DNA of 14,922 nucleotides from a virus, in UHGV virus genome UHGV-0216241, one strand, 5' to 3'. Shown here one piece after another: positions 1,756 to 14,922 of this stretch. Under the pieces are notes generated by a model, which had not been told where the DNA came from, ran no database searches, and saw only the letters and a list, made by a program, of their open reading frames with translations. A program made the translations under genes and the position numbers. The first letter of the stretch is position 1. Each line of letters begins with the position of its first letter.

Positions 1756-1768
1756 CTTTTAATTCCTT

Positions 1769-2161
1769 TTATTTTAAAGTTGCTACAATATTTATTGCAA
1801 AAGATAGCGATTGATAACCAGTTGATGGATCTGTTACTAGTTCACTGTCTGCTACGTCATAACTATGAAGTTGTACACCATTATTACCAAATTCCATGAT
1901 TGTATTAGTACGGAAGTAATCGAAAATAGTACCGAAGGTGTCAGCGGGTAAATTTATTGAAGGTTCTGGTACTAATAGGAATTGAAATGTAAAGTTACCC
2001 ATTTGATTCTGATTATTGTAGTTTACAGATTGGTAGGTTTGATTAGTTGAAACGAGAATAAAGAGATCACGCCCTGCTGCAATATTCATTGCCTTTCTAA
2101 TTGGCATGATATTATTTAAACTGTCTCTAATAGTTTTCTGTACTTGTGTTAGTAGATTCAT
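1769..2161 (-). CDS. Small virion protein, probable head completion or head-tail connector (hypothetical)
   Basis: ORF-track entry 1769..2218; I prefer the internal ATG at 2161 (MNLLTQVQ...), which abuts the upstream stop (TAATATG) and avoids a 56-nt overlap. Position is immediately after the capsid gene. Function is inferred from synteny only. Confidence 0.45.
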   Translation of the reverse strand: MNLLTQVQKTIRDSLNNIMPIRKAMNIAAGRDLFILVSTNQTYQSVNYNNQNQMGNFTFQFLLVPEPSINLPADTFGTIFDYFRTNTIMEFGNNGVQLHSYDVADSELVTDPSTGYQSLSFAINIVATLK

Positions 2162-2162
2162 A

Positions 2163-2483
2163 TTACCACCCGTAATTATTAATTGTAGATGGTCTAATGA
2201 ATACTTCACTAACACCACTTAAATCATTATAGATATTGTATACAGTGTAGTTAGTACCCTGTACGCCTACTACGGAATCAATAGCGATACTGTAAGTAGA
2301 TAGGTCATCAGTCTTTACTGATAGAAATGTTTCTGTACTTTCTACTAGCCCTTCAGTACCACTATCTACGACTACGGGGTGATGATCTACGATTGCCGTA
2401 AATCTCGCCCCGTTAATTGTGATAGGTTCACCAAAGGCATTTAGAAAAGTAGAATCAATTTGATTGCTAGTAAAATGCCTCAT
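2163..2483 (-). CDS. Small virion protein, probable head-tail adaptor or head completion (hypothetical)
   Basis: 106-aa ORF starting 12 nt after the stop of the capsid gene, same strand, tightly packed. Function is inferred from position only. Confidence 0.45.
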   Translation of the reverse strand: MRHFTSNQIDSTFLNAFGEPITINGARFTAIVDHHPVVVDSGTEGLVESTETFLSVKTDDLSTYSIAIDSVVGVQGTNYTVYNIYNDLSGVSEVFIRPSTINNYGW

Positions 2484-2495
2484 AGTGTTTTATCC

Positions 2496-4388
2496 TTATG
2501 GTTTTAGTTGTAGTTGTACAAATGCTTCCTCGTGTGCGATAGCTACATCTAGGTATTGGAAACTACGAATTGCAATAGTTTGTGCTGCACGGTAGGTAGT
2601 ATCATCAAAATCTAGTTCTTGGCCTTCATTCCAGTTAGCAAAGATTAGCTCAGAGAAATCACCGATTAGAATGGTATCTGCTGCTACGAAAGTAGATTCA
2701 ATTACACGTACTTCGTCATTCAACCACATGTCATAACGATGACCTGCTACCATTGCTACGGCTGCGGTGTTATTCAATACTGCGGTTTGACGTAGTTTTG
2801 CAAGCATAGAAGGATGCACGATAGCTACACAACGATTAATATCAACGTTTTTAGCGGAGATAGCTTCGATTGCTGCCTGTACGTCTGCTTCTGATACTTG
2901 ACCAGATACTGCGGTTTGTTTTACTGGTACAGTAGTAGCGATTTGTGCAAATACTGCGGATTCTAGACCGTTAGAGCATTGGCGTAGTAGCTCGTCGGTG
3001 ACGTAACGTTCGGTAGCTGCGTTGCTTAGTAGCATTGCTTTAGTGATTTTGATACCTGCTGCGAACATGCGAGGCTTTAGAGTGATTTTATCGAAATCAT
3101 TACGACCATCATCTACCGCCTCATCTTCTGCGTAGAATTTAGCGGTAGGAGTCATACCTTTAGAACGTGGGATAGAGAAATTGCCACGTCCGGCAAGCCC
3201 TCCGAACACGGTAACATCAAGTTGACCTAGTACAGTTTGAGCGAGTAGTTGACGAATATAGCTGTCTGCTAGTTCTTCTTTTACAAGACCCGCCGCTGTC
3301 ACGGTTGAAGTGGTATCAGCGGTGCTACGTACCATTGCGTTTAGATCTGCATTATAACCGCGAGCACCTTTTTCGAAAGATTCTAGATCGTGTGCTTCAC
3401 CTTTTAGACTGCGTAGACCTTCGTTAATTAGAGATTTCTTTTCCATTTTTTTGATATCCTTATCAATTGATTTATTATCTGTATTTAGTGAGCGTTTAAA
3501 GTCTTCTACGCTTACACCGTTTTTAATTGCTTCTTCTGTACTAACGCCTAGTACCGAAGAAATAGATTGAAGTTCGCGTACACGCTTATCTTCTACTTCT
3601 TTATTTATGCTTTCCTGAATATCAGTTACTGCAATAGAACGTTCTTCTACTAATTCAGGTTGTACTTCCTGTACTTCCTCAATTACTTCCGGTTCTTCTA
3701 CTACTTCTACTGATTCTTCCGGTACTGGTACTTCTTCTTCGATTACTTCGGCTTGTACTTCTTCTTGTTGTACTTCCTCAATAACTTCAACTTCATGTAC
3801 TAGTTCTTCTTTTTGTTCTGGTTCCATTTGGGGTTGATCCTCTAAAGTAATTTCATCATTACTATTTAGTGATCTTCCCACACCTACGCTATTGTCTGCC
3901 GGAGTGGATACGCTAGATACTTCGTAGGGTTGCCATTTTGAAACGATTAGATCATTACCGTCTAGGTAGTAATCTAGAATGTTATAACCTACGGATACTT
4001 TAGGGCGAATACCTTCTACGATCATACCGAAGATAGTATTTGCAGTACCTAAAGCACTAAAACGTACAGTAGCACGACATACCTTATCCATATCTACGCG
4101 AGCATTTTCAACTATACCAACTTGACGCATTGCATCATGTTCTACTAGTACAGGGGCACCGTCATTAAGACGGCTTAAATCCACGTTCTCAGGACTACAT
4201 AAAAGGATCTCATTATAGAGAGTCCCTTTAATATCGCGTACTACTGGAACTTCACTTGCAAAAGAGAGTTCTACCGTTCTGTCAGCTTCATCAATTGCAT
4301 TATTGATTTGCGTTATATTGATCGCCCTCGTCTGGTTCTTGTTCAATTCCATTTTCTTTATTTTCCTTGTTGATTTCTTCCATGACAA
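2496..4388 (-). CDS. Prohead protease - acidic linker/scaffold - HK97-fold major capsid protein fusion
   Basis: 630-aa ORF. The N-terminus (LSFASEVPVVRD...APVLVEHD) resembles HK97-type prohead protease motifs. The middle is a Glu/Val-rich low-complexity block (EEVQQEEVQAEVIEEEVPVPEE...). The C-terminal ~300 aa has an HK97-like capsid character. Lies directly downstream of the portal. The start is uncertain (ATG 4388 or 4352); both overlap the portal 3' end. Confidence 0.7.
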   Translation of the reverse strand: MSWKKSTRKIKKMELNKNQTRAINITQINNAIDEADRTVELSFASEVPVVRDIKGTLYNEILLCSPENVDLSRLNDGAPVLVEHDAMRQVGIVENARVDMDKVCRATVRFSALGTANTIFGMIVEGIRPKVSVGYNILDYYLDGNDLIVSKWQPYEVSSVSTPADNSVGVGRSLNSNDEITLEDQPQMEPEQKEELVHEVEVIEEVQQEEVQAEVIEEEVPVPEESVEVVEEPEVIEEVQEVQPELVEERSIAVTDIQESINKEVEDKRVRELQSISSVLGVSTEEAIKNGVSVEDFKRSLNTDNKSIDKDIKKMEKKSLINEGLRSLKGEAHDLESFEKGARGYNADLNAMVRSTADTTSTVTAAGLVKEELADSYIRQLLAQTVLGQLDVTVFGGLAGRGNFSIPRSKGMTPTAKFYAEDEAVDDGRNDFDKITLKPRMFAAGIKITKAMLLSNAATERYVTDELLRQCSNGLESAVFAQIATTVPVKQTAVSGQVSEADVQAAIEAISAKNVDINRCVAIVHPSMLAKLRQTAVLNNTAAVAMVAGHRYDMWLNDEVRVIESTFVAADTILIGDFSELIFANWNEGQELDFDDTTYRAAQTIAIRSFQYLDVAIAHEEAFVQLQLKP

Positions 4389-5796
4389 TAACCGGATCGT
4401 ATCCCATCTCCGAAATTACCATTGCCTTACTCTTTAAACCGTTATCAATTGCTAATACTTCGGTTTGAAGGTCTTTATATGGATCTAGGGAGATTTGACG
4501 CGTCTGTACATATTGTGCATGAGTCAATTTATTAAAATCACTAAAATTTAAATTGCTTAATGTACTACTATTTAGCATTGCAGATTTTAGCCATGCAATA
4601 TAAAGAGGTTTCAGTACAGATACAATTAAAGCATTAGTACGGCTTTTAAATGTTGATTGCTGTAATTTATCAGTTAACTTTGCAGCACTGAATGAAGCAT
4701 TGCTAGTATCAGAAGTTAGAGATTGTTTTGTAATATCTAATCCCATTGCAATCATCATCATTTGGTTATCAATAAACTCTTGTATACCGTCGGTAGTCTG
4801 AGATGGGTTTACTGTTTTAATATCCTGACCTGCCTGTAGTTCTACGATTGCAGCCGGATTTAGATAGTCCTGGTCATAGTACGATACACTATCATCAGTC
4901 AGTAGTTGTACATCATCGCTATCGGGGTTAGTGATAAAGGCCATTGCGGACGCCGCAACCTTACGGGAAGTAATTGCTGCCGCCATAAATTCCTCTAACT
5001 CTTTTAACTTCTCAGTACCGGAATGTACGTCTGGTATCCCGCGTTGCTGTGTTGGGTAGTCCTGTTGAAAGAGATGTAGGATCTCATCTGCTGGTACTCG
5101 TTCACGCTCACCAATCATATAGTTATACATGATAGGATTGTAACGCGTTACCCAATAGGCTACGGGGCGATTTGTATTAATATCAAATTCAATACCATTA
5201 CTGATAAAGTTTCCCGACGGTAGTAACTGGTTCTCATAGGTAGAGATACGCATTGAATCGATAATCTCGATCTGTGGTAGTTCACCTGGCTTACTGTGAA
5301 TACGTACGAAGCAATCGCCATCTACTGAACGGGTACGTTCAACTAGACGTTGAAAGGTACTGATATCTAGAGTACCGCAACGTGAAAAGGCTTTAGGATC
5401 TTCGGCCCATGCATAGAACGCATCTTCAATTTGTTTATCGATTGACTGGTTAACTTCTTCGTTATCAGAGCTATGAGTACAAGGACGAATATATAGGCCA
5501 TCTGCACCTGTTACGCCTGCACTATTCGTACTGACATATTTCTTTACAATACCGTTCTTAATTGATAATTCACGACTAACGGCGACCATTACGGGTAGAG
5601 TACGGTTAATGATTGCGTTAATATTGCCAGCCTGATTACCGCCAGTGAAGCCAAATGAGATAACAGGGCTAGATGATCCCAAATTAAGGGAAGTCATTGC
5701 ACGTTTCATCGGGTTATTCTTCATTAGCTTCACTGGCTTCTGTACTAATACCTTCTGTTTTGGTTCTTCTACTTTCTTTTTATTCCATCCGAACAT
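4300..5796 (-). CDS. Portal protein (lambda gpB-like)
   Basis: 498-aa ORF between the terminase and the protease/capsid gene, with size and position typical of a portal. Its start overlaps the upstream stop as TAATG, indicating translational coupling. Confidence 0.75.
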   Translation of the reverse strand: MFGWNKKKVEEPKQKVLVQKPVKLMKNNPMKRAMTSLNLGSSSPVISFGFTGGNQAGNINAIINRTLPVMVAVSRELSIKNGIVKKYVSTNSAGVTGADGLYIRPCTHSSDNEEVNQSIDKQIEDAFYAWAEDPKAFSRCGTLDISTFQRLVERTRSVDGDCFVRIHSKPGELPQIEIIDSMRISTYENQLLPSGNFISNGIEFDINTNRPVAYWVTRYNPIMYNYMIGERERVPADEILHLFQQDYPTQQRGIPDVHSGTEKLKELEEFMAAAITSRKVAASAMAFITNPDSDDVQLLTDDSVSYYDQDYLNPAAIVELQAGQDIKTVNPSQTTDGIQEFIDNQMMMIAMGLDITKQSLTSDTSNASFSAAKLTDKLQQSTFKSRTNALIVSVLKPLYIAWLKSAMLNSSTLSNLNFSDFNKLTHAQYVQTRQISLDPYKDLQTEVLAIDNGLKSKAMVISEMGYDPVIVMEEINKENKENGIEQEPDEGDQYNANQ

Positions 5797-6298: not shown

Positions 6299-8218
6299 TT
6301 ATTTAAAGAAGCCACCACCTTTACGCGGCCTTATTACTCGTTTTGGAGTTGGCTTAGTTGGTGTTTCTTCTGTATTTACTTCTTTATTTAGTCCTGCTTT
6401 CTCTTTTTGTTTCGCGTTGTATTCCCTTAGTTGTCGGAATGGTTGACTACCTAATTTAGATAGATACCACTGGAAACATATAAGCGAGTAATTAAGACAA
6501 TCAAGGGTTTCATTTCTCGCCGAACTAACTTTCTTCACCCATACCCAGGCACCAGCCTTTATTACTCGCTTCTCGGAAGTAAGCTGAATAAAGTAATCAT
6601 CCGGTACTGAATGACTGAAATGTATTTGTACTTCCTTACTATTTTCACTATCGGATACAGCACGGTTGAGTAATTGACGGACGTTTGATTTGCCTAAGTT
6701 TACGTTAAGGTTAATCAGGGAGTGACCACCAGCGGTACTACCTTTGAATAATGGGTTAGAGTTAGACGTACCACCCTTGATAGGTTTAAAGATAGTAGAA
6801 TTACTGCAATAGCGATATACGGTACTAGTTGCGTTGCCGTTACTACTATCGACGAATCCAGCTAATACTTTAAGTGGTTTACCCGAACGTGTTTTCAATG
6901 GGGCGTTAGCAAAGGCCGTTAGCTTATTCCATGCTGGGGCTTCGATCTTCGTACAGTCAATTGCGTATATACTGCGATGATCTAAAACATAGAGATTCTT
7001 CTCACTTACTCCTAGTGTACTTATCTCCAATCTGTCAAGCTGCTGGTCAACGCCGAATACCACCCCTAGTACGTCATCGGGGATATTATTGATATCTATT
7101 TCACTATCTCTTAGGTTCTCCAATAATACTAAATCATGGTCGGTATTCTCTTTATCAATATATGGCAGTCCTAGTACGTTGTTATAGAATGATGCCAGGT
7201 CAAATGTATAATGTGCTTCTGCAAAGTCTGCTACAATTGATTTTATGGAATTGATGGGGGAATAGAGTCTAGATATGTGATAGCCCATTATATCCGTTAC
7301 TTCCGGTGCTGTTACTATCCATTCACCTTTACGGATCATTCGTACACGTTCTGCTTCTGTTATTACATTATTACACTTAGGACATTCTAGCCTTGCAGTG
7401 TCTGCATCTGGAATACGACGGCGACCACCTTCAATAATTTTCCATTCGAATTTAACGTTTTCGAATACCATTTCGTGTGAGTGGTTACAGTGGGGGCAAG
7501 GTACATAAAACTTCTGTTTATTACTTTGTTCGTACTGTTGGGTAATCAGGTCATGCTCATCTAGTGGAGTAGAACAACACATAATCAGGGGGTTACTGAA
7601 TGCTTTCGTTCTCTGTTCTGCCAGCTTCAAGGGATTGCCTTCTTCGCCGTCGGCGTTGACATTGGATATCTCATCCAAAAATACGCGAGGGGCCGTTAGA
7701 CCACGTAGTGAAGCACTACTACCCAATGACAGGAAGTAGGTAAACGTTCCATCTAAATTTTGTTGTGTCTTGTCATTGTTCGTATAGTTCTTGTCGTTCT
7801 TATTACTAACGAGATTTTTCAGTACCGAACATGCTTCGATGACTGCTTGCCATTTACCAGTCCTAAATTTACTAGTAGTACCACCAGTAGCACCACCAAA
7901 GATCATGTTACTAGGATCATTGGCTAGGAAGTAGTACATACTATTCTGTAGTACCGTTGTTTTGAGGAGTTGAGCACTGCTCATGAGCACCACCTTACGG
8001 ACGCGTGGATTTACGATATCGTTGATGGGTTTATGCTGAAAGGCGAATAATTTGACACGCTGCCCCTGTAGTTCGCCGTCCGGGAAGACTAGATTACTCT
8101 CTACCCATTCAGCGGGTAGTTGTTTCTTCGGAGGTAGGATCGACTTCGCCGCCCTCGTTAGTATCTTCATCATCTTCTGGTAGTTGGTCTTCATATGTTC
8201 CCTCATATTCATAGCCAC
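6299..8218 (-). CDS. Terminase large subunit (GpA-type, cos phages)
   Basis: 639-aa ORF, the size of lambda gpA. Has a Walker-A-like FGGATGGTTSK, two Cys pairs (CPHCNH...CPKCNN) and sits directly after the small-subunit gene. The start may be an internal Met (8194, 8173 or 8170); any choice overlaps the small-subunit gene. Confidence 0.8.
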   Translation of the reverse strand: MAMNMREHMKTNYQKMMKILTRAAKSILPPKKQLPAEWVESNLVFPDGELQGQRVKLFAFQHKPINDIVNPRVRKVVLMSSAQLLKTTVLQNSMYYFLANDPSNMIFGGATGGTTSKFRTGKWQAVIEACSVLKNLVSNKNDKNYTNNDKTQQNLDGTFTYFLSLGSSASLRGLTAPRVFLDEISNVNADGEEGNPLKLAEQRTKAFSNPLIMCCSTPLDEHDLITQQYEQSNKQKFYVPCPHCNHSHEMVFENVKFEWKIIEGGRRRIPDADTARLECPKCNNVITEAERVRMIRKGEWIVTAPEVTDIMGYHISRLYSPINSIKSIVADFAEAHYTFDLASFYNNVLGLPYIDKENTDHDLVLLENLRDSEIDINNIPDDVLGVVFGVDQQLDRLEISTLGVSEKNLYVLDHRSIYAIDCTKIEAPAWNKLTAFANAPLKTRSGKPLKVLAGFVDSSNGNATSTVYRYCSNSTIFKPIKGGTSNSNPLFKGSTAGGHSLINLNVNLGKSNVRQLLNRAVSDSENSKEVQIHFSHSVPDDYFIQLTSEKRVIKAGAWVWVKKVSSARNETLDCLNYSLICFQWYLSKLGSQPFRQLREYNAKQKEKAGLNKEVNTEETPTKPTPKRVIRPRKGGGFFK

Positions 8219-8663
8219 CGATTTCTTCTAGCTGGCGGTCTATCTTGTCCTGTAATTTAATTTTTAATTCTAATGCATCCTGTGATTCGAATAATTCAAC
8301 ATAACTTGACGCGGGAATACTTCTTAGTACCTGTCGTAGTTGGTAGAAGTATTGGGATAAAGTTTGCTGTACTACTGCTACCGGAATTAGTTCTCCCGAT
8401 TGCTGGCGTAGTTCTAATTCTTTTAGGTCTGCTTCTGCTTCTAGTTTGCGTAGTGTGGCTTTATGGATCATTCCCTTCACATCACCATTACGCATTGGTT
8501 CGATTACGTTTGCTAGTAACCAGTCGTCTACTAATTTTTTAGGCCAGGTAATATCCAGTCCTTTGCCAGACCAGATACGGGATACAGTAGAATGCTCTAC
8601 GCCGAATCGGTCGGCGATTTCTTGCCATGAATATCTGGTTCCATCGTCTTTATTCTTTGCCAT
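8109..8663 (-). CDS. Terminase small subunit (HTH DNA-binding N-terminus, acidic C-tail)
   Basis: 184-aa ORF immediately upstream of the large subunit. The N-terminus has a helix-turn-helix-like stretch (SWQEIADRFGVEHSTVSRIW) and the C-terminus is acidic (EDDEDTNEGGEVDPTSEE). AGGAAA Shine-Dalgarno lies 7 nt upstream of ATG 8663. Confidence 0.75.
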   Translation of the reverse strand: MAKNKDDGTRYSWQEIADRFGVEHSTVSRIWSGKGLDITWPKKLVDDWLLANVIEPMRNGDVKGMIHKATLRKLEAEADLKELELRQQSGELIPVAVVQQTLSQYFYQLRQVLRSIPASSYVELFESQDALELKIKLQDKIDRQLEEIGGYEYEGTYEDQLPEDDEDTNEGGEVDPTSEETTTR

Positions 8664-8978
8664 GTGATTTCCTATTCACTTATTATTCACTTTCCATTGA
8701 TTGGTATTTTCTATCTATTTCGGTACTGATAGGTTTTATCTATAAATTTGTTTGTTTTATGTAAAATTTCTCACGTATTTTTATTATAACTCGCGGCCAA
8801 ACTTCGCATAGTTTGGCATATTCAGGAGAACCTACCGAAAGTCAAGGGAGTGATTCCATTTTTTTATCTTTTTTTTGATATAAAGCACAAATTGCACAAA
8901 ATCTTGATAGCTTCTACCTATCAGTACCGAAGGATACCATCATCCTATTATTCACTGTTTATGCATTGTTTATGCAAT
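8664..8978. other. Candidate packaging-site region (cos/pac), non-coding, upstream of the terminase small subunit
   Basis: ~315 bp with no credible ORF. Contains a 16-bp inverted repeat (8719-8734 TTCGGTACTGATAGGT and its reverse complement at 8916-8931), a perfect 8-bp-stem hairpin (8796-8817), two T8 tracts (8858-8865, 8869-8876) and a direct repeat TTTATGCA x2 (8953-8971). Location matches cos/cosB in lambda-like phages. Confidence 0.45.
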
Positions 8979-9365
8979 CTACTTGAGTATCACCATATTA
9001 CTAACGATTACATCACAACGATAAGAGATAGGCAGACCATCTACGGTACGGTACTGTAGGATCTCGTCGCGTAGTTCTCTTAGTCTGTTTAGGTGTGGTA
9101 GTTCGCTACCGTTGAATCTATCTAGTTCTCGTATGGGGTAATTAGTACGGCCTATGGTGAAGCGTGAGTAGTTTAATGTAATGTATTTATACTTAAGCGT
9201 TAGTGTATAGGTATCTATGAATAGCTCGTAACCGTCCTGTGTGATGATATGAGCGGTTATTAGCTTATCCTTGCGTGATGGTATGTATCCTGATTCCTGT
9301 CGGCCTGTGGTGCTTTCTATGGCCTTATACGTTCCATCAGGGAAGTGTAGGTAGATTGTATTCAT
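8979..9365 (-). CDS. Hypothetical protein (128 aa)
   Basis: ORF with an AGGAG Shine-Dalgarno upstream of ATG 9365. No recognisable motifs. Confidence 0.55.
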   Translation of the reverse strand: MNTIYLHFPDGTYKAIESTTGRQESGYIPSRKDKLITAHIITQDGYELFIDTYTLTLKYKYITLNYSRFTIGRTNYPIRELDRFNGSELPHLNRLRELRDEILQYRTVDGLPISYRCDVIVSNMVILK

Positions 9366-9371
9366 GGTGGG

Positions 9372-9398
9372 ATACTCCTATTGCATGTATAGGAGTAT
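9372..9398 (-). promoter_or_regulatory. Shine-Dalgarno-sequestering hairpin in the 5' leader of the 128-aa gene
   Basis: Perfect 10-bp inverted repeat ATACTCCTAT (9372-9381) and ATAGGAGTAT (9389-9398) with a 7-nt loop. On the minus-strand mRNA the AGGAG Shine-Dalgarno lies in the 3' arm, paired to ACUCCU. Confidence 0.45.
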
Positions 9399-9410
9399 TT
9401 AGGCAGGAAT

Positions 9411-9437
9411 AAAAAAGCCCACTGTGATTAGTGGGCT
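9411..9437 (-). terminator. Rho-independent terminator after the 232-aa gene
   Basis: Minus-strand hairpin with stem AGCCCACT / AGTGGGCT (9416-9423 and 9430-9437), a 6-nt loop, followed on the minus strand by a run of five U then AUU (9411-9415 on plus). Begins 7 nt after the stop at 9444. Confidence 0.7.
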
Positions 9438-9443
9438 AGTGGA

Positions 9444-10142
9444 TTAGTAAGAATGTATATAATGTGAGATTGGTATAGTACCGCCAGTGTAGGTACTAAT
9501 TTCTAATTCCTTCGCTACTAAATCAAGTATATCCAAGTGTTGCTGTATATCTTGATGTGGTGTTCCATTATTATCTAATAGGTTATGGGGAAAGAGTATA
9601 CTAATTTGTGCTATTTCTCCTACCATAGAAAGATCATTACCATGAATGTAATTTATTTTACGTTCATCGTGGTTATGTTCATGGTATATAGTGAACTTCT
9701 CATTACCTACATCATTTAGGCGACCATAACGCCAGCTAACTTGAAAGATACTACCCATATCATGTACAGTAATTGAATCGTCATTACTACCATCGATAGT
9801 AACATCAACAATATAATTACCGTGATTGATGCGGTAGTCTTCGATGCTTCCCGTTGGTAGATTTGGTTCGGATAGTTCTAGTACGGTTTCATTTTCATCA
9901 AAGCGATAGGAGGCTAATTCTATTGGTAGCATATTGTAAGTATCTAATTCATTATAGCTAATCATGCGGGTAGATTCATTCCATGTATTACCCATGAGTA
10001 CACCAACAAAATTACCGTTATGATCGCGGTGATCACCATCACCCATAATAAATGGAGTGTTACGCGTATACATTACAATCTTACCCGCACGACGAACAAC
10101 AATACCGTTAGTATGTTTAGTGAGAGTTACATCAAAAATCAT
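9444..10142 (-). CDS. Hypothetical His/Asp-rich protein (232 aa), moron-like cassette gene
   Basis: ORF with a GAGGAA Shine-Dalgarno 6 nt upstream and its own terminator. Has His-rich patches (GDGDHRDHNG, HEHNHDERK). No family recognised. Confidence 0.6.
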   Translation of the reverse strand: MIFDVTLTKHTNGIVVRRAGKIVMYTRNTPFIMGDGDHRDHNGNFVGVLMGNTWNESTRMISYNELDTYNMLPIELASYRFDENETVLELSEPNLPTGSIEDYRINHGNYIVDVTIDGSNDDSITVHDMGSIFQVSWRYGRLNDVGNEKFTIYHEHNHDERKINYIHGNDLSMVGEIAQISILFPHNLLDNNGTPHQDIQQHLDILDLVAKELEISTYTGGTIPISHYIHSY

Positions 10143-10164
10143 TATACTTTCCTCATTAGATTTT

Positions 10165-10187
10165 ATTATAGACCACTGTGATTAGTG
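10165..10187 (-). promoter_or_regulatory. Putative promoter -10 (TATAAT) plus a 15-bp repeat element upstream of the 232-aa gene
   Basis: Minus-strand TATAAT at 10170..10165, ~22 nt upstream of ATG 10142; the -35 is poor. The adjacent 15-mer CCACTGTGATTAGTG (10173-10187) is identical to 9419-9433 inside the downstream terminator. Confidence 0.3.
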
Positions 10188-10199
10188 TGTGTATTATTA

Positions 10200-10421
10200 T
10201 TAGTTAGTATCGAACAATGGCTTTATTAGTGGTATCTCTTCTTCCCCTTCAATTGGTTTACCGTGATGATCTGCTACGCGTACTATCGTATTTTCATACG
10301 GATTAATACTATAATAGTTTTGATGTTCTTCGGTACTAACAATGATACGTTCAATGATCATATCACTATCGCTCACTGAATCAGTGAGATTACGGATTGC
10401 ATCTAATAATTTCTCTAACAT
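10200..10421 (-). CDS. Hypothetical small protein (73 aa)
   Basis: ORF tightly packed (9-nt gap) downstream of the secreted-protein genes on the same strand. Confidence 0.5.
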   Translation of the reverse strand: MLEKLLDAIRNLTDSVSDSDMIIERIIVSTEEHQNYYSINPYENTIVRVADHHGKPIEGEEEIPLIKPLFDTN

Positions 10422-10430
10422 GTTTACCCC

Positions 10431-10817
10431 TTATTTTATTTTAACGCAGTTTTGAAAGTAGTAATTACGAGTATCAGATCTCAATAAGAAGATAAAAGTA
10501 ATATCGTTTTGCTCTTTACTTCCCATTGTTGCAAGGAAGTATCGCTGCCTATCATTATCATAAGCCATTGTCATTGAATCATTAGATTCTATTGGTCCGG
10601 TGGCGTGAGTCATTGCACCGAAGTTAAGGATAAAACCATCACTATTAACTTTAGCGTGACCTGCACCAGAATAAGAAGATTTTTCTACTGGAGTATCACC
10701 CAGCATTTCAACTACTTTCACATCACATTGATACAATCCCTGCTCTGGTAGAGAGTGAGTGTTAGCCAGTACCGAAGGAGATACTAACAGTAATGCAGAT
10801 ACGATAACCTTTTTCAT
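10431..10817 (-). CDS. Secreted small protein with cleavable signal peptide, two conserved Cys (paralog 1)
   Basis: N-terminus MKKVIVSALLLVSPSVLA is a classic Sec signal peptide. AAGGAA Shine-Dalgarno 5 nt upstream. Shares architecture and motifs (LPxxGLYxC ... FxNC) with the adjacent gene. Confidence 0.65.
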   Translation of the reverse strand: MKKVIVSALLLVSPSVLANTHSLPEQGLYQCDVKVVEMLGDTPVEKSSYSGAGHAKVNSDGFILNFGAMTHATGPIESNDSMTMAYDNDRQRYFLATMGSKEQNDITFIFLLRSDTRNYYFQNCVKIK

Positions 10818-10826
10818 TTCTATTCC

Positions 10827-11219
10827 TTATTCAATAATACAATTGGAGAAGTTCAAAAATACGGGATTATTCTCATTGCTGACCATATACTGTGTTTTAC
10901 CATTGATTGCACTAATAATAATATCGTACTGGTCAGTATCTACGGCATAGGCCATCAGGCGACCGCTTTTAAGTTTTGAAACAGGGCTGAATGAAATATT
11001 CATATCCCTAAACTTCACACTAACAGCACGGTTATCAATACTCACATAACCAGTCATACCATAATAACCAGTCTTTACTACTCGCTTTCCTACCTGTTCC
11101 CACGATTCAACACCGCAACGATATAAACCATCATCAGGGAGTATTACATTTACTGCCAGTACCGAAGGGGCTACTAACAGTAATGCAGACAGTACAATCT
11201 TTTTCATAAATTCATCCAT
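10827..11219 (-). CDS. Secreted small protein with signal peptide (paralog 2); true start probably ATG at 11207
   Basis: MKKIVLSALLLVAPSVLA signal peptide begins at the fifth codon. The mature region has the same Cys spacing as the downstream paralog. Confidence 0.6.
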   Translation of the reverse strand: MDEFMKKIVLSALLLVAPSVLAVNVILPDDGLYRCGVESWEQVGKRVVKTGYYGMTGYVSIDNRAVSVKFRDMNISFSPVSKLKSGRLMAYAVDTDQYDIIISAINGKTQYMVSNENNPVFLNFSNCIIE

Positions 11220-11325
11220 TCGGGATTATCTACTTTATCAGAATCAATGGCATTGTTGATGCCAGATAATGACAGTGTTTTTGATTACGGCGACTGCAAT
11301 TTAATAAGTAGGGTTAATGTATTTT

Positions 11326-11331
11326 ATTATA
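11326..11331 (-). promoter_or_regulatory. Possible extended -10 promoter element (TGaTATAAT) for the secreted-paralog operon
   Basis: Minus-strand TGATATAAT in the 11208-11386 intergenic gap; no good -35. Confidence 0.25.
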
Positions 11332-11386
11332 TCATAGTAATATGCAGTCCCCATAACTAAAAGTACGGCAAATATTGTTTTCTTCA

Positions 11387-11767
11387 TCACAGATTATCGT
11401 CTATATAATTAGTTGGTTTCGATAACTCAAATTCTGTACCGTAATTATTTGAACGATCAACTATCTTAGTGGTGTTTTTGTGGGGGCCGTGGGCTTTATG
11501 TTCTTCGAAGCTATGAATATTTGTAAGTCGGTCGGCGGCAATAATACAGCTACCAGTAGATGGGCGTTCTTCACCCAATAGCATAGGCTGACAATCACTA
11601 CTGAATTGTGGGCGATACTCTTTACCACCATTTACGGGGAATAATACTAGTGTACGACCGTTAATATCACCTACTACGGCTTCATTCATAAAAGCAGGCG
11701 TTATAGTAGTACAGCCAGTAGTGATTGTAGCCGTAGCGAGTACAGCTAGGGTAAAGAGATTTTTCAT
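11387..11767 (-). CDS. Exported protein, possible lipoprotein (126 aa)
   Basis: N-terminus MKNLFTLAVLATATITTGC is a hydrophobic signal sequence ending in Cys (imperfect lipobox TTGC). AAGGA Shine-Dalgarno 7 nt upstream. A perfect TATAAT (11819..11814) lies upstream. Confidence 0.6.
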   Translation of the reverse strand: MKNLFTLAVLATATITTGCTTITPAFMNEAVVGDINGRTLVLFPVNGGKEYRPQFSSDCQPMLLGEERPSTGSCIIAADRLTNIHSFEEHKAHGPHKNTTKIVDRSNNYGTEFELSKPTNYIDDNL

Positions 11768-11833
11768 TAGTAAATCCTTGTAGTGATTGTGTGAGGTGAT
11801 GTTTGATGTGAATTATTATAGCTATGATATTTA

Positions 11834-11870
11834 GTAATAGCTACTACTTTATTTGTGTAGTAGCTATTAT
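11834..11870 (-). promoter_or_regulatory. Stem-loop with 12-bp perfect inverted repeat between the 227-aa gene and the exported-protein gene; terminator or operator
   Basis: AATAGCTACTAC (11836-11847) and GTAGTAGCTATT (11857-11868) with a 9-nt loop. Sits right after the stop at 11876 and overlaps the -35 region of the TATAAT at 11814-11819. There is no clean U-tract on the minus strand. Confidence 0.4.
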
Positions 11871-11875
11871 TCTTC

Positions 11876-12559
11876 TTATACTACCTTATAGGCTTTAGTA
11901 ACAAGCTCTTTGAAGTCTTGCTCGTCGGCCTGTTTAGGATACTGCTGCTTGTACTCGGCGTAGTATTCCTGTGCTTTCGCGTTCATCTTCCCTTTCTGGT
12001 TTAGATGGAACTCATGACCGTTCCACTTCGCATTAAGCGGGTATTTTTTGCGATAGTCCTCACTATACGCCCGTAAAAACTCGTCAACGTCCGATAGTTC
12101 GGGATTCTTCTTAACCAACTGAATGTATACTTCATCCTTGAGTAATGCCGCTGGTAACTTCTTATTGATTACATTATAGGTTCTTCTTTCGTCCTTCTTG
12201 CTATCAACTATGACTACTTCGAATATCTTATTGCCGTTCGGCTTCGATGCTTTTTGTGGTATGGAAGCAGGAGAAGATACAGCCAGTGTAGAAAGCAGTT
12301 CCTCTACACTAGAGAAGCTACCAGACTCTTGTACAAGTGATTCTAATAGTTTCTTAGCTTCGTTTAGTCGCTCGGTACGTAGTGTGCTTACATAGTCCTT
12401 CACTTCGCCCAGGCGTTGAATGAGAGTGTCTAGTTCTTCTTCGTTGACGTTTGCCAGTGCATTGCGGCCTGTTGCGTCGGCAGTCAACATACCTACATGA
12501 AAATCATCATTAAGAATCGTACTGATCATTTTTGCGGTAATGCTTTTAATGCTTCCCAT
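11876..12559 (-). CDS. Hypothetical protein (227 aa), coiled-coil-like N-terminal half and Lys/Tyr-rich C-terminal half
   Basis: ORF with a GAGG Shine-Dalgarno 7 nt upstream of ATG 12559. No family recognised. Confidence 0.55.
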   Translation of the reverse strand: MGSIKSITAKMISTILNDDFHVGMLTADATGRNALANVNEEELDTLIQRLGEVKDYVSTLRTERLNEAKKLLESLVQESGSFSSVEELLSTLAVSSPASIPQKASKPNGNKIFEVVIVDSKKDERRTYNVINKKLPAALLKDEVYIQLVKKNPELSDVDEFLRAYSEDYRKKYPLNAKWNGHEFHLNQKGKMNAKAQEYYAEYKQQYPKQADEQDFKELVTKAYKVV

Positions 12560-12747
12560 AGTACAGCCTCATTTGGTTTTAACAGTAACTGAGTACAATC
12601 GGTTAGTTTAACTATATTTGCAAGTGGGATCTCCTTCAAAGTGTTTATCATCTCACTGGTAAGACCAAATTCACCTAGTAGATCTTCTTCGGAAAGTTTC
12701 CGTACTGTATCTATATAGAGTACGTTTAGCTCATGTAGATCATTCAT
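12526..12747 (-). CDS. Hypothetical small protein (73 aa)
   Basis: ORF whose start overlaps the upstream gene's stop (ATGA at 12744-12747), indicating translational coupling. Confidence 0.5.
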   Translation of the reverse strand: MNDLHELNVLYIDTVRKLSEEDLLGEFGLTSEMINTLKEIPLANIVKLTDCTQLLLKPNEAVLWEALKALPQK

Positions 12748-12941
12748 AGCTTAATGTTGACGCGTTTTCTAGTAAGTAAGCTCAATAGTGCTTCGTTATA
12801 GGTAGTGTGCCACTTCTTACCATCACTAAAAGGCTTGTTGATGTGTCGGGGATGCTTAGACATAGTGACCGCCCCTACCTTTCGGTCGTGATCGTCGAAA
12901 ACTTCGGTTATAAGTCCACCTGCAATACAACTAATACGCAT
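12744..12941 (-). CDS. Hypothetical small protein (65 aa)
   Basis: ORF in an operon-like array; weak GGGA Shine-Dalgarno. Confidence 0.45.
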   Translation of the reverse strand: MRISCIAGGLITEVFDDHDRKVGAVTMSKHPRHINKPFSDGKKWHTTYNEALLSLLTRKRVNIKL

Positions 12942-13022
12942 GTAAAGATCCCAGCAATGAAGAAAAAGAAATTTGCAGCCGCAAGGTAAGTAAAGGTTAA
13001 TTTTTTTTCATAGAGTGTCCAT

Positions 13023-13063
13023 ATTAACACTACTAGTACATTTTCGGTACTAGTAGTGTTAAT
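13023..13063. repeat. Perfect 17-bp inverted repeat (palindrome) with 7-nt spacer
   Basis: ATTAACACTACTAGTAC (13023-13039), spacer ATTTTCG, then GTACTAGTAGTGTTAAT (13047-13063). Located 4 nt after the stop of the 97-aa gene. No adjacent U-tract on the minus strand. The spacer carries the recurrent TTCGGTACT motif. Confidence 0.6.
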
Positions 13064-13066
13064 TGA

Positions 13067-13360
13067 TTAATGTACGTTAGTAACTTCTTCGGATACTACT
13101 TCTAGTAATGAAGTGAAAGCACGTTCACCATCGAATCGGGCAATAGTGATCTTATCGGTTACACTCTTGGGTAAATTGATGTTCTTTTCCCAATGGAACA
13201 AGCCACCAGACATAAGAAACATACTGAATAATTCACGCTCATTATGACGGGAACTAATTACTATATGAAACATTCCCGTTACACGATTATCAATCTCGTT
13301 GATCTTGAATCCTAAATCATGTGCCTTAATGACCAAATCAGTAGATACACCCTTAGACAT
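13067..13360 (-). CDS. Hypothetical protein (97 aa)
   Basis: ORF with a GGGAG Shine-Dalgarno 9 nt upstream; its start overlaps the stop of the upstream 28-codon ORF. Confidence 0.55.
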   Translation of the reverse strand: MSKGVSTDLVIKAHDLGFKINEIDNRVTGMFHIVISSRHNERELFSMFLMSGGLFHWEKNINLPKSVTDKITIARFDGERAFTSLLEVVSEEVTNVH

Positions 13361-13439
13361 TTTCGATACTCCCTACGATTAGTAACATGGTTATGATGAC
13401 TACAAATAGTACATGCTCTTTAGTGATAGTGAACGTCAT
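13353..13439 (-). CDS. Unannotated 28-aa hydrophobic peptide (MTFTITKEHVLFVVIITMLLIVGSIENV), predicted single transmembrane helix
   Basis: Hand-translated; missing from the ORF track, presumably below its length cutoff. GAGGA Shine-Dalgarno 6 nt upstream of ATG 13439. Stop overlaps the next gene's start by 8 nt. A promoter-like element lies upstream. Confidence 0.4.
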   Translation of the reverse strand: MTFTITKEHVLFVVIITMLLIVGSIENV

Positions 13440-13468
13440 GTTGTGTCCTCGTTGTATTGACACCACTG

Positions 13469-13497
13469 ATACTAGAATCATTAGTTACTAACGTCAA
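13469..13497 (-). promoter_or_regulatory. Putative sigma70-like promoter for the 28-aa/97-aa operon
   Basis: Minus-strand -35 TTGACG (13497..13492), 17-nt spacer, -10 TAGTAT (13474..13469); ATG at 13439. Confidence 0.4.
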
Positions 13498-13533
13498 CAC
13501 TAGATACTAAAATATTTTATTAGTAGAAAACAC

Positions 13534-13561
13534 TTGATAGTAACTAACAGTAGTGTATACT
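13534..13561 (+). promoter_or_regulatory. Putative sigma70-like promoter for the plus-strand 60-aa gene (divergent from the minus promoter)
   Basis: -35 TTGATA (13534-13539), 16-nt spacer, -10 TATACT (13556-13561). The 10-bp element TAGTAACTAA occurs at 13538-13547 and as an inverted copy at 13481-13490 in the other promoter's spacer. Confidence 0.45.
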
Positions 13562-13601
13562 GTCTTTATTGAAGCAAAACACTACTACGAAGGGATATAT
13601 A

Positions 13602-13787
13602 ATGAATACAGTAACTTACTTAGAACGCGGTAACATCACTGATATCATGGTTAACGATGTATATATGGGGGCAGTAGTAAAAGGTGACGATAACAAATAT
13701 CGTACCGTACATAAGAACAATGCAGAATCTGGTACGTTTACTGCTTTCCACTTCGCAGCGTACCATGTAGAAAAAGCAGTTTGATAG
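13602..13787 (+). CDS. Hypothetical small protein (60 aa), the only plus-strand gene with its own promoter and terminator
   Basis: ATG 13602 preceded by an AGGGA Shine-Dalgarno (13591-13595); this is the internal Met of ORF-track entry 13569..13784. Followed immediately by an intrinsic terminator. Confidence 0.55.
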
Positions 13788-13795
13788 AAACGATG

Positions 13796-13820
13796 AAGCC
13801 CACATTAAGTGGGCTTTTTT
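13796..13820. terminator. Rho-independent terminator for the plus-strand gene, overlapping the 3' end of the convergent minus-strand gene
   Basis: Stem AAGCCCAC / GTGGGCTT (13796-13803 and 13809-13816), 5-nt loop, then a T6 run ending at 13820. The last five codons (TKKPT) and stop of the minus-strand 178-aa gene are encoded within the hairpin and T-tract. Confidence 0.7.
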
Positions 13821-14341
13821 GTCTTGCGTGGTTTCTTAGTCTTCGGTACTGGTACTTCTTCCGGTACTGACACGTCCTCTACAACGTCCTGTACACCCCT
13901 TAGAATGCGTTCTACTTCATCGGCATTGCGTTGTACGTCTTGATGTACTCCGGCTTTCCAATAGGCTTGTAGTGCTTCTAAATTGGGGATTCCCTGGCTT
14001 GCGACAACTCCATCAGTATGGTGAATATGTAGGTCCAATCCACCATTGATACGGGCACGGAAGTTATGCGGGTTATTATTCAATATTTCGATTTGCATTA
14101 TTGTTACTCCATTGATTATGCAGTCAGACATAAAGATTATTTCATCCAGATCATCCATGACTACGGACAATTGGAAGTATTCCGCTTCATTCAGTCCTAG
14201 ATAGTAATCAGGGGGATGATCGTACTTGATAGTATTATTTAGTAGTATTCCTTTCGTATTGACTGCATAACGCCTGGATAACTGGCGGTCATTGAAAATC
14301 AATCCACGGGGATTATTGTATACGATTTTTAGTTTTCTCAT
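13805..14341 (-). CDS. Hypothetical protein (178 aa) with Lys/Pro-rich basic C-terminal tail
   Basis: ORF with C-terminus PEEVPVPKTKKPRKTKKPT and a His-rich patch (GGLDLHIHHTDG). No family recognised. Confidence 0.55.
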   Translation of the reverse strand: MRKLKIVYNNPRGLIFNDRQLSRRYAVNTKGILLNNTIKYDHPPDYYLGLNEAEYFQLSVVMDDLDEIIFMSDCIINGVTIMQIEILNNNPHNFRARINGGLDLHIHHTDGVVASQGIPNLEALQAYWKAGVHQDVQRNADEVERILRGVQDVVEDVSVPEEVPVPKTKKPRKTKKPT

Positions 14342-14654
14342 TTGTTTTCCATATGTAAGTAATTTGGCCTTTGTGGTGTTTTAGTATTTCTCTTTGCACC
14401 TTCTGTACTAATTCTGCATCGTATAGAGTACATTCTTGAAAGAGCATTTCTTCCGTGTACTCCGTAAGTAGTTTTCGTGGTATTTCTTGCGTATATGTTC
14501 TTTCAATCCACCTATCGTTGATATAGTCATATAGGAAAGACAATTCACCCATTACATAGATATACATTCCGTGAATAGTGAAATGATTCAGTACGGCATC
14601 ATGATAGTTATGGGAGTATCCCCAATGCATTTGTTTACTATGTATGTATTTCAT
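14313..14654 (-). CDS. Hypothetical protein (113 aa)
   Basis: ORF with an AAGGAA Shine-Dalgarno 7 nt upstream of ATG 14654; its 3' end overlaps the next gene by 29 nt. Confidence 0.5.
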   Translation of the reverse strand: MKYIHSKQMHWGYSHNYHDAVLNHFTIHGMYIYVMGELSFLYDYINDRWIERTYTQEIPRKLLTEYTEEMLFQECTLYDAELVQKVQREILKHHKGQITYIWKTNEKTKNRIQ

Positions 14655-14922
14655 TTATTTGTTCCTTATTGATAGTTAATTCTTCGGTACTGTCGCCGCC
14701 CGTTCCACTCCGTCGCCGCGTCCAACTCACAAAATATATGAGGAAGCACTTTGATAGTAGTAATGAGAACTACACCTACTGGATCGAGCAAAGCGAAGGG
14801 AGAACGCTTGCGGGATTCCGTAGCGATAGCGAGGAAAACGCAATGTTAGGTGTAATAATTAAATAATTTCAAAGACTCGCTCTGTCGAGGCTTTCTAATT
14901 ACTTAACTATTTCTTCCTGTTC

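Follow-up and report, generated by a model that had tools for sequence, protein, structure and literature searches.

What is a word of nine nucleotides, AGTACCGAA on one strand and TTCGGTACT on the other, doing in so many copies across a small phage genome? The question is raised by UHGV virus genome UHGV-0216241, a stretch of 14,922 nucleotides (nt) that was analysed over its full length and that we call the window. An earlier note, made from the sequence, had described the 9-mer as over-represented in non-coding regions and had offered two functions for it, a binding site for a phage-encoded regulator or a phage-specific promoter element. We find that it is a real, undescribed, phage-specific dispersed DNA word, whose spelling in this clade is shaped by restriction-site avoidance; when the 9-mer was searched for in the literature, only primers turned up. 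The most economical mechanism would be a phage protein that binds double-stranded DNA (dsDNA) at many operator-like sites, a reading that we hold tentatively and weigh below against its rivals.

Over-representation of the word

The window holds 11 exact copies of AGTACCGAA/TTCGGTACT, counted on both strands, against 0.15 expected from dinucleotide-preserving shuffles (n=200, maximum 2 copies), which makes the word about 70 times commoner than chance; under an order-3 Markov model 0.5-0.6 copies are expected. The claimed over-representation is therefore borne out, and it is larger than the earlier note had put it. The copies are the following (ORF, open reading frame; aa, amino acids; TerS, small terminase subunit), where sense and antisense refer to the direction of the genes.

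1928..1936, plus strand: exact copy, antisense in the 149-aa head-tail gene; coding strand TTC GGT ACT (F-G-T)
3550..3558, plus strand: exact copy, antisense in the capsid-fusion gene; TCG GTA CTA (S-V-L)
7821..7829, plus strand: exact copy, antisense in the large terminase gene; TCG GTA CTG (S-V-L)
8719..8727, minus strand: exact copy, non-coding, sense; 56 nt upstream of the TerS start
8923..8931, plus strand: exact copy, non-coding, antisense; outer end of a 28-nt inverted repeat
10329..10337, minus strand: exact copy, sense in a 73-aa gene (10200-10421); AGT ACC GAA (S-T-E)
10768..10776, plus strand: exact copy, antisense in the signal-peptide region of a 128-aa protein, 41 nt from its start; TCG GTA CTG (S-V-L)
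11158..11166, plus strand: exact copy, antisense in the signal peptide of the 130-aa paralog, 53 nt from its start
13043..13051, minus strand: exact copy, non-coding, sense; straddles the loop and right stem of a hairpin
13842..13850, minus strand: exact copy, sense, 37 nt before the stop of a 178-aa gene; GTA CCG AAG (V-P-K)
14683..14691, minus strand: exact copy, non-coding, sense; 29 nt upstream of the 113-aa gene start

The earlier note had placed the four non-coding copies exactly (8719-8727, 8923-8931, 13043-13051 and 14683-14691), and its distance of about 30 nt between the last of them and the 113-aa gene agrees with the 29 nt measured. Its coding coordinates were 2-4 nt off (10764 for 10768-10776, 11160 for 11158-11166 and 13845 for 13842-13850), and it overlooked the copies at 1928, 3550, 7821 and 10329. 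As for its assignment of the word to non-coding regions, 7 of the 11 copies lie within ORFs, but the non-coding part of the window, 10.8% of its length, holds the other 4, a 3.4-fold excess (binomial P=0.024). The 11158 copy is probably common with the 10768 copy through gene duplication.

The seven copies within coding sequence compare with 0.20 expected under codon permutation and 0.60 under synonymous-codon shuffling, and for each of these two nulls none of 500 shuffles reaches seven; a complete relative from E. coli has 10 coding copies, against 0.4-1.3 under the codon nulls. The coding copies span four reading frames and read S-V-L (four times), F-G-T, S-T-E and V-P-K. F-G-T is spelled TTCGGTACT in 4 of 4 cases, V-P-K takes CCG, which makes up 12% of Pro codons, in 3 of 3, and the Ser of S-V-L is TCG, 5% of Ser codons, in 2 of the 4 tripeptides. 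Since codon-preserving nulls do not reproduce the count and rare codons spell the word, the enrichment acts at the DNA level; pure codon usage and peptide repeats are ruled out by both nulls, the several frames and the rare codons.

Anatomy of the motif

The full unit is an asymmetric word of about 12 base pairs (bp), Y-AGTACCGAA-G-R. The position before the core (-1) is a pyrimidine in all 11 copies (P=5e-4) and the one after it (+1) is G in 8 (P=2e-4); when 18 non-orthologous copies of the clade were pooled, Y stood at -1 in 17 and R at +2 in 17. Twenty words of the window differ from the core by one mismatch. Seven of these differ at position 6, where an order-3 Markov model expects 1.5, and eight at position 8, where it expects 1.3, an excess of five to six times, while none differs at positions 1, 3, 4 or 9 and a single one at position 7; enrichment is thus found only at positions 6 and 8, and not at 1, 7 and 9. 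Generalised, the unit is Y-AGTAC-N-G-R-A-G-R, with C strongly preferred at N. The variants in the window are:

1294-1302 (minus), 3718-3726 (minus), 5014-5022 (plus), 6600-6608 (minus), 13860-13868 (minus): AGTACCGGA, position 8 A to G
2136-2144, 2331-2339, 3534-3542, 5738-5746, 14401-14409 (all minus): AGTACAGAA, position 6 C to A
1907-1915 (plus), 12698-12706 (minus): AGTACGGAA

Together, the 11 exact cores and 5 copies of AGTACCGGA make 16. The 3550 copy and the AGTACAGAA at 3534-3542 on the minus strand form a near-inverted pair, 7 nt apart, which is a perfect inverted repeat in the relative L002, and the 13842 copy stands in tandem with the AGTACCGGA at 13860-13868. Across the genome, AGTAC words have no preferred spacing and no palindromic pairing, and the two flanks of GTAC are statistically independent; we therefore regard the word as a single asymmetric site and not as half of a palindrome, and a dimeric or palindromic site is ruled out.

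Phage specificity and lineage variants

The close relatives are IMG/VR proviruses (here L001-L013), whose large terminase subunit (TerL) is 74-98% identical to that of the window, and two relatives were found among 5,426 complete E. coli genomes. The prophage of E. coli WGI31CT (L016), from sequence record NZ_CM135810, measures 32.5 kilobases (kb), is inserted in yegD and adjoins a large serine recombinase; it is 93% identical to the window and has a GC content of 39%, against 54% in its flanks. This prophage holds 13 copies of the 9-mer (21 with AGTACCGGA), against none in 16.2 kb of host flanks, and 43 copies of AGTACCG, against 2 in about 16 kb of flanks. Judged from these flanks, the word is specific to the phage.

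From the comparison of relatives, the word reads as this clade's form of a family-wide AGTAC-N-G-R-A, in which the base at N varies by lineage. The top over-represented word is (C)AGTACCG(A/G)A in the window, L001, L002 and L016, CCAGTACCGCC in L010, AGTACAG(G/A)A in L006-L009 and AAGTACTGA in L013. AGTACNG and AGTACNGRA exceed the codon nulls 2.5-9 fold in every relative tested; for AGTACNGRA the counts are 31 against 3.4-7.1 expected and, in L013, where the hexamer AGTACT is tolerated, 12 against 1.2-3.6.

Restriction-site avoidance and the variable base

AGTACT, the ScaI site, for which E. coli has the isoschizomer Eco255I, does not occur in the window's clade (0 against 39 expected under an order-3 Markov model or 33-38 under codon nulls). 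GGTACC (11 expected), AAGCTT (8.8), CTGCAG (6.4) and GAATTC (6.3) are likewise absent from the window and from positions 2969-35468 of L016, and CGTACG is present once; the expectations for these six-cutter palindromes range from 4 to 39. Such a pattern is classic restriction avoidance, in a genome that is otherwise rich in GTAC. Because AGTACT is completely purged, T is barred at N in this clade; L011 and L013, relatives that tolerate AGTACT, prefer T there (AGTACTG). In codon alignments of shared genes, columns that read AGTACT in relatives carry GGTACT (12), AGTATT (11), AATACT (6) and AGTACC (4) in this clade, and the two-mismatch TCTACT (6) is also found at such columns. GGTACT, which on the reverse complement reads AGTACC, leads the one-off neighbours of AGTACT.

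The C of AGTACCGAA is a transition escape from the forbidden T, which explains why this spelling is used but not why there is such a word at all. Lineages that tolerate AGTACT still show the excess, and in them CAGTACTG, the putative ancestor of CAGTACCG, is rare (at most 4 copies, against 25 of CAGTACCG in L016); restriction avoidance explains the variable base in part. Whatever the word turns out to do, the purge of a restriction site decides here in which form a lineage can keep an over-represented word. Motif discovery in phages calls for care on this account, as the commonest k-mer may be an allowed neighbour of a site that is forbidden.

It is on this ground that the first rival has to be weighed, namely that the word has no reader and is a passive by-product of an odd genome signature (TA, GTAC, AGTA) combined with the AGTACT purge. 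The signature is certainly unusual. GTAC is abundant, with 281 occurrences in 32.5 kb where about 113 would be expected, rho(TA) reaches 1.11, compared with 0.73 both in the E. coli flanks and in a T4-like phage, and GTA makes up 66% of Val codons, CTA 42% of Leu, AGT 32% of Ser and ACT 44% of Thr; CTAG is not avoided, and the composition is very unlike that of enterobacterial hosts. Under this rival, many former AGTACT(G) sites would have been turned by single transitions into AGTACC(G) or (C)GGTACT, in line with the substituted columns, the five missing palindromes and the AGTACTG of the tolerant relatives. The enrichment also declines gradually through the nested sub-words (AGTAC 97, AGTACC 37, AGTACCG 23), and the copies show no excess conservation. 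However, the excess of AGTACNGRA remains when N is collapsed, in the tolerant L013 too, and the presumed ancestor is rare in the lineages that tolerate AGTACT. The strict positions 7 and 9, the Y at -1, the G-R at +1/+2, the non-coding excess and a conserved copy near the cos region (below) are left unexplained as well, and we consider a word without a reader unlikely.

We give the same low probability to a broader idea, in which AGTAC-N-G-R-A would be the prophage family's own 'self-DNA' word, an analogue of uptake sequences or of Chi, read by a conserved phage machine (for example terminase and cos recognition, or a genome-wide silencer). Its variable base would drift between lineages under host restriction, so that avoidance and motif maintenance would co-evolve at the same nucleotides.

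As a side observation on avoidance, L012 (IMGVR_UViG_3300045988_135422) tolerates AGTACT (31 sites) and has no CAGTAC/GTACTG, with about 5 expected for AGTACTG, which suggests that it avoids a different, asymmetric site.

Position of the copies

In the early region, 7 of the 8 copies are no more than 60 nt away from a gene boundary (P ~0.005, with a threshold picked post hoc); copies are also found deep within the capsid and large-terminase genes. The one position kept across the family is in the cos region, where a conserved 15-nt core, GAGTTT(T/C)CGCCGCGA, precedes the TerS gene in every relative and, going by its position and conservation, would mark cosN.

8791..8805, minus strand: cos-region core, window version GAAGTTTGGCCGCGA, the anchor for the conserved AGTAC element

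A sense AGTAY element stands at +59 to +71 from this core in 14 of 16 family sequences; in the window it is the 8719 copy, which starts 63 nt downstream. Its immediate flanks differ among the relatives and the offset of the TerS ATG ranges from +85 to +128, so the element is anchored to the core and not to the ATG. It lies between the core and the TerS gene, at a conserved position, as would suit a cosB-type site. In the window's clade an inverted copy (8923-8931) is found beyond the core, at a distance of about 120-130 nt. The two copies sit, as the earlier note had seen, in the two arms of a 28-nt inverted repeat (8719-8746 and 8904-8931, 82% complementary), both of which contain the 16-nt block ACCTATCAGTACCGAA.

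This arrangement argues for a second rival, in which TerS or a cos accessory factor would recognise the word as a tag for packaging or for 'self-DNA'; the copy close to cos would belong to cosB, and the dispersed ones, bound with low affinity, would serve as landing sites and so raise the concentration of the factor on phage DNA. In its favour, the only copy with a family-wide conserved position is tied to the core and has an inverted partner beyond it, much as in lambda cosB, with its gpNu1-bound R sites and its integration host factor (IHF) site I1. TerS is gpNu1-like with an N-terminal helix-turn-helix (HTH) conserved in the family, and, given that a family-wide word needs a universal reader, it is the only universal protein of the family with a recognisable DNA-binding motif. 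Against this, lambda R sites are confined to cos and the word is dispersed over the whole genome, has no orientation bias relative to the direction of packaging, and is denser in the early region than in the first-packaged DNA; moreover, we know of no cos phage with dispersed terminase sites. As TerS sites, the GTGAATA repeats that flank the core are more plausible than the 9-mer. This tag is to our mind somewhat less probable again than a word without a reader.

The cos region (8664-8980) is rich in further repeats: GTGAATA(ATA) recurs to the left and right of the core, GATAG/CTATC forms hairpins, a tract of AAAACAAACAAA is conserved, and ATCAATGG looks like an IHF site. Compared with lambda cos and cosB, the region has no homology beyond short strings.

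Just downstream of a 97-aa gene, a hairpin (13023-13063) has a perfect 17-bp stem and a 7-nt loop, CGAAAAT. The copy at 13043, said earlier to lie in the spacer of the 17-bp palindrome, does so in part, but it extends into the right stem; the site reads AGTACCGGA in L001 and L016. In L002 (about 1060-1100) the loop of the hairpin is inverted, so that the copy shifts to the other strand. A 14-nt repeat, AGTA(C/T)CGAAAATGT, recurs at 13357-13370, where it overlaps the start codon of the 97-aa gene.

The gap that holds the 14683 copy separates the 113-aa gene from a 42-aa ORF, and because these two are divergent it may be a genetic-switch region. The 42-aa ORF, on the strand opposite to all other genes, is identical in the E. 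coli relative (L016 31552-31680). Abutting the 14683 copy is GGGCGGCGAC (14692-14701, minus strand), which matches the opening 10 nt of the lambda cohesive end exactly; a second GCGGCGAC precedes it about 20 nt upstream, and L016 has ACGGGGCGGCGGC there. The GGGCGGCGAC string is not kept in position or orientation in other relatives, and it may have arisen by chance or be another candidate for cos. Just past the right edge of the window, L016 31860-31950 holds iteron-like repeats, TTAGCCC and ATGGGCTA, direct and inverted, a cluster that may be a replication origin or an operator array.

A putative reader of the word

The reading that we prefer, while giving it clearly less than even weight, is that the copies are operator-like sites for a phage-encoded sequence-specific dsDNA-binding protein, with the extended word YAGTACCGAAGR as the proposed recognition sequence of this putative reader. 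Both the existence of a reader protein and its action are inferred here. It would bind in either orientation, at about one site per kilobase, and the copies that matter would be those at early-gene boundaries, in the divergent gap (14655-14737) and downstream of the cos core ahead of TerS. The late operon would have to start ahead of TerS, and the bound protein could silence or time transcription by occlusion or as a roadblock, while the late-gene copies would be weaker or redundant. The C at position 6 would not be read; it would be fixed as T would create AGTACT, T-to-C being an escape by a one-step transition. The regulator site of the earlier note survives to this extent, through the structure of the motif, its specificity to the phage, the early boundaries and the cos-proximal copy.

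Several results weigh against this reading. Among the early proteins, nearly all of which are orphans in Pfam and PHROGs, no DNA-binding reader was recognised. The word has no orientation bias in the window (5 sense and 6 antisense copies, although the annotated genes run one way; in L016 the orientations of AGTACCG divide 18 to 25), and the lack of preferred spacing and of palindromic pairing, described above, belongs here too. The signal is compositional in part: AGTAC itself (90 observed, 51-71 under codon nulls) is largely explained by codon usage. Compared between close relatives of 86-94% identity, the copies change as fast as random 9-mers of their neighbourhood (P=0.12-0.94), so that individual copies are not under detectable purifying selection; many redundant dispersed signals likewise show no detectable constraint on single copies. 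The late-gene copies have no relation to gene boundaries. Finally, the variant near cos sometimes differs from the dispersed variant of the same genome, for example in L002 and L006-9.

One early protein deserves mention in this context. A 73-aa protein (12526-12747), found only in the clade that uses the AGTACCGAA variant, is all-helical and marginally FlhD-like (Pfam E=0.006; PDB sequence search E=0.055), and its Foldseek top match is 1g8e (probability 0.82), for a model of moderate confidence (pLDDT 73). Its FlhD-like matches are concordant but fall below every threshold, which counts as a further point against a reader having been found; this protein may be a weak candidate for it.

The closest precedent is offered by the stoperators and operators of Cluster A mycobacteriophages, bound by the repressors of L5 (gp71), Bxb1 and TipsytheTRex, which are short asymmetric words in tens of copies in temperate phages. 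Stoperators are found in promoters, short intergenic gaps and gene ends; they are phage-specific, and their consensus differs among related phages (PMC9283540, PMC6550527). In length and number the two systems are similar, stoperators having about 13 bp and more than 20 copies per genome and the word here about 12 bp and 11 copies per 15 kb. By analogy, the word may work like stoperators (PMC9283540). The differences are nevertheless considerable. The orientation of stoperators follows transcription and is needed for function, whereas it is 6:5 here; stoperators are mostly intergenic, whereas 7 of the 11 copies lie within ORFs, structural genes included; stoperators have a cognate repressor, and none is recognised here; and the lineage variation seen here comes in part from restriction-site avoidance and not from immunity specificity. 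As it does not follow the orientation rule and most of its copies are intragenic, the word is not a member of the stoperator class. If a phage protein does read it, this would be a second, independent genome-wide operator-like system outside the actinobacteriophages, in Enterobacteriaceae and independent of orientation, and it would open a way into the regulation of a prophage family in which nearly every early gene is an orphan.

Other readings

Improbable, in our opinion, is a role as nick sites for a phage endonuclease of the HNH or GIY-YIG kind, which would interrupt single strands at specific sites, as happens in T5-like or tf-like phages. N.phiGamma, an HNH nickase of phage origin, cuts at YCG/GT and prefers ACCGR over ACCGY (PMC4027164, PMC3592412). 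Its site (YCG/GT = AC/CGR) is contained in our word, T-Y-CGGT-ACT, and the degenerate position 8 (A/G) coincides with its R, as the 11 copies of AGTACCGAA and 5 of AGTACCGGA show; among the products of the related E. coli prophage are a GIY-YIG nuclease of the SegE type and a sub-threshold HNH_3 protein. On the other hand, ACCG by itself is hardly in excess, and AGT stands before 43 of its 213 sites; it is AGTAC that carries the specificity. The HNH_3 match is of the homing type and lies about 8 kb from the terminase genes in L016, outside the window; no HNH gene adjoins TerS or TerL, the characterised nickases come from Gram-positive phages (of Bacillus and Geobacillus), and a phage has no evident gain from enriching the sites of its own nuclease.

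The phage-specific promoter element proposed by the earlier note, favoured by the three of four non-coding copies that are sense and 29-102 nt upstream of gene starts, is highly improbable. With 5 sense and 6 antisense copies under transcription in one direction, and 7 of 11 copies within ORFs, some of them mid-gene in the capsid and terminase genes, the word is not a promoter; there is no consistent -10/-35 partner, spacing to -10-like hexamers is inconsistent, promoter-like matches number 24 against 24.3 in shuffles, and no phage RNA polymerase or sigma factor was found.

Equally far-fetched is a host-level signal carried by the phage, either a DNA uptake sequence or a Chi-like nuclease-attenuating site. 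The word does resemble the 'dialects' of the Haemophilus uptake signal sequence (USS) and the Neisseria DNA uptake sequence (DUS), which are 9-12 nt long, recur about once per kb on either strand, within genes (in several frames) as well as between them, and have occasional inverted pairs and single-base variants that mark lineages; its own density is about 1 per 1.4 kb. But USS and DUS are properties of host genomes tied to competence machinery, whereas the word is confined to the prophage, and its variants differ among phages of the same host family; its hosts are Enterobacteriaceae, which are not known to use uptake sequences. Chi function requires an orientation bias, and true Chi (GCTGGTGG) is oriented 5 to 1 in L016, against 6:5 for the word. 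As far as the host DNA covered here goes, absence from the E. coli flanks and lack of orientation bias therefore rule out an uptake or Chi-type signal. True Chi itself occurs 6 times in L016, with 5 copies in the coding-strand orientation and about 0.3-0.8 expected; the window has it once (6726-6733), and the E. coli prophage four times in the shared region.

A marker of mosaic-recombination junctions was rejected because, of about 7 breakpoints in homology, no more than 1 or 2 coincide with a copy, and a footprint of very-short-patch (VSP)-type repair because the depletion of AGTACTG is explained by the purge of AGTACT as a whole and the opposite-strand neighbour is not depleted.

The phage and its genes

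The window is part of the genome of a temperate tailed phage, a piece of a prophage of about 32 kb with a lambda-type terminase and low GC, residing in Enterobacteriaceae; one relative (L015) resides in Pseudocitrobacter faecalis. The window has no nucleotide match among 50,697 phage records and an exact-protein look-up found its TerL not to be on record; the best match to TerL from a cultured phage has 37% identity. All annotated genes are on the minus strand, except for the small 42-aa ORF:

1-1758, minus strand: tail-fibre gene, runs off the left end
1769-2218, minus strand: 149-aa head-tail gene
2496-4388, minus strand: capsid-fusion gene, a head gene
4300-5796, minus strand: lambda-family portal, a head gene
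6299-8218, minus strand: large terminase (TerL), gpA-type
8109-8663, minus strand: small terminase (TerS), gpNu1-like, N-terminal HTH kept across the family
8979-14654, minus strand: about 12 small orphan early genes
14738-14866, plus strand: 42-aa ORF, conserved, divergent from the 113-aa gene

RNA or tRNA elements of known kind were not found. In the early region, two secreted proteins of 128 aa (10431-10817) and 130 aa (10827-11219) are paralogs, and a 126-aa predicted lipoprotein (11387-11767) has a lipobox-like TTGC; the three may have moron or exclusion functions.

A further sequence, L014, is positions 1-15578 of PQ671644.1, 'Escherichia phage DCP80', classed in the Straboviridae (T4-like). 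It opens with a gpA terminase of the lambda type and about 15 kb of genes for hypothetical proteins, has no AGTAC enrichment, and may be a chimeric assembly. Other lineages of the family carry repeats of their own: L011 (about 7450-7510) has (CCCTTAC)x8 in tandem upstream of its cos region, and L003 and L004 have AGTAATGAG repeats, in 8-10 copies.

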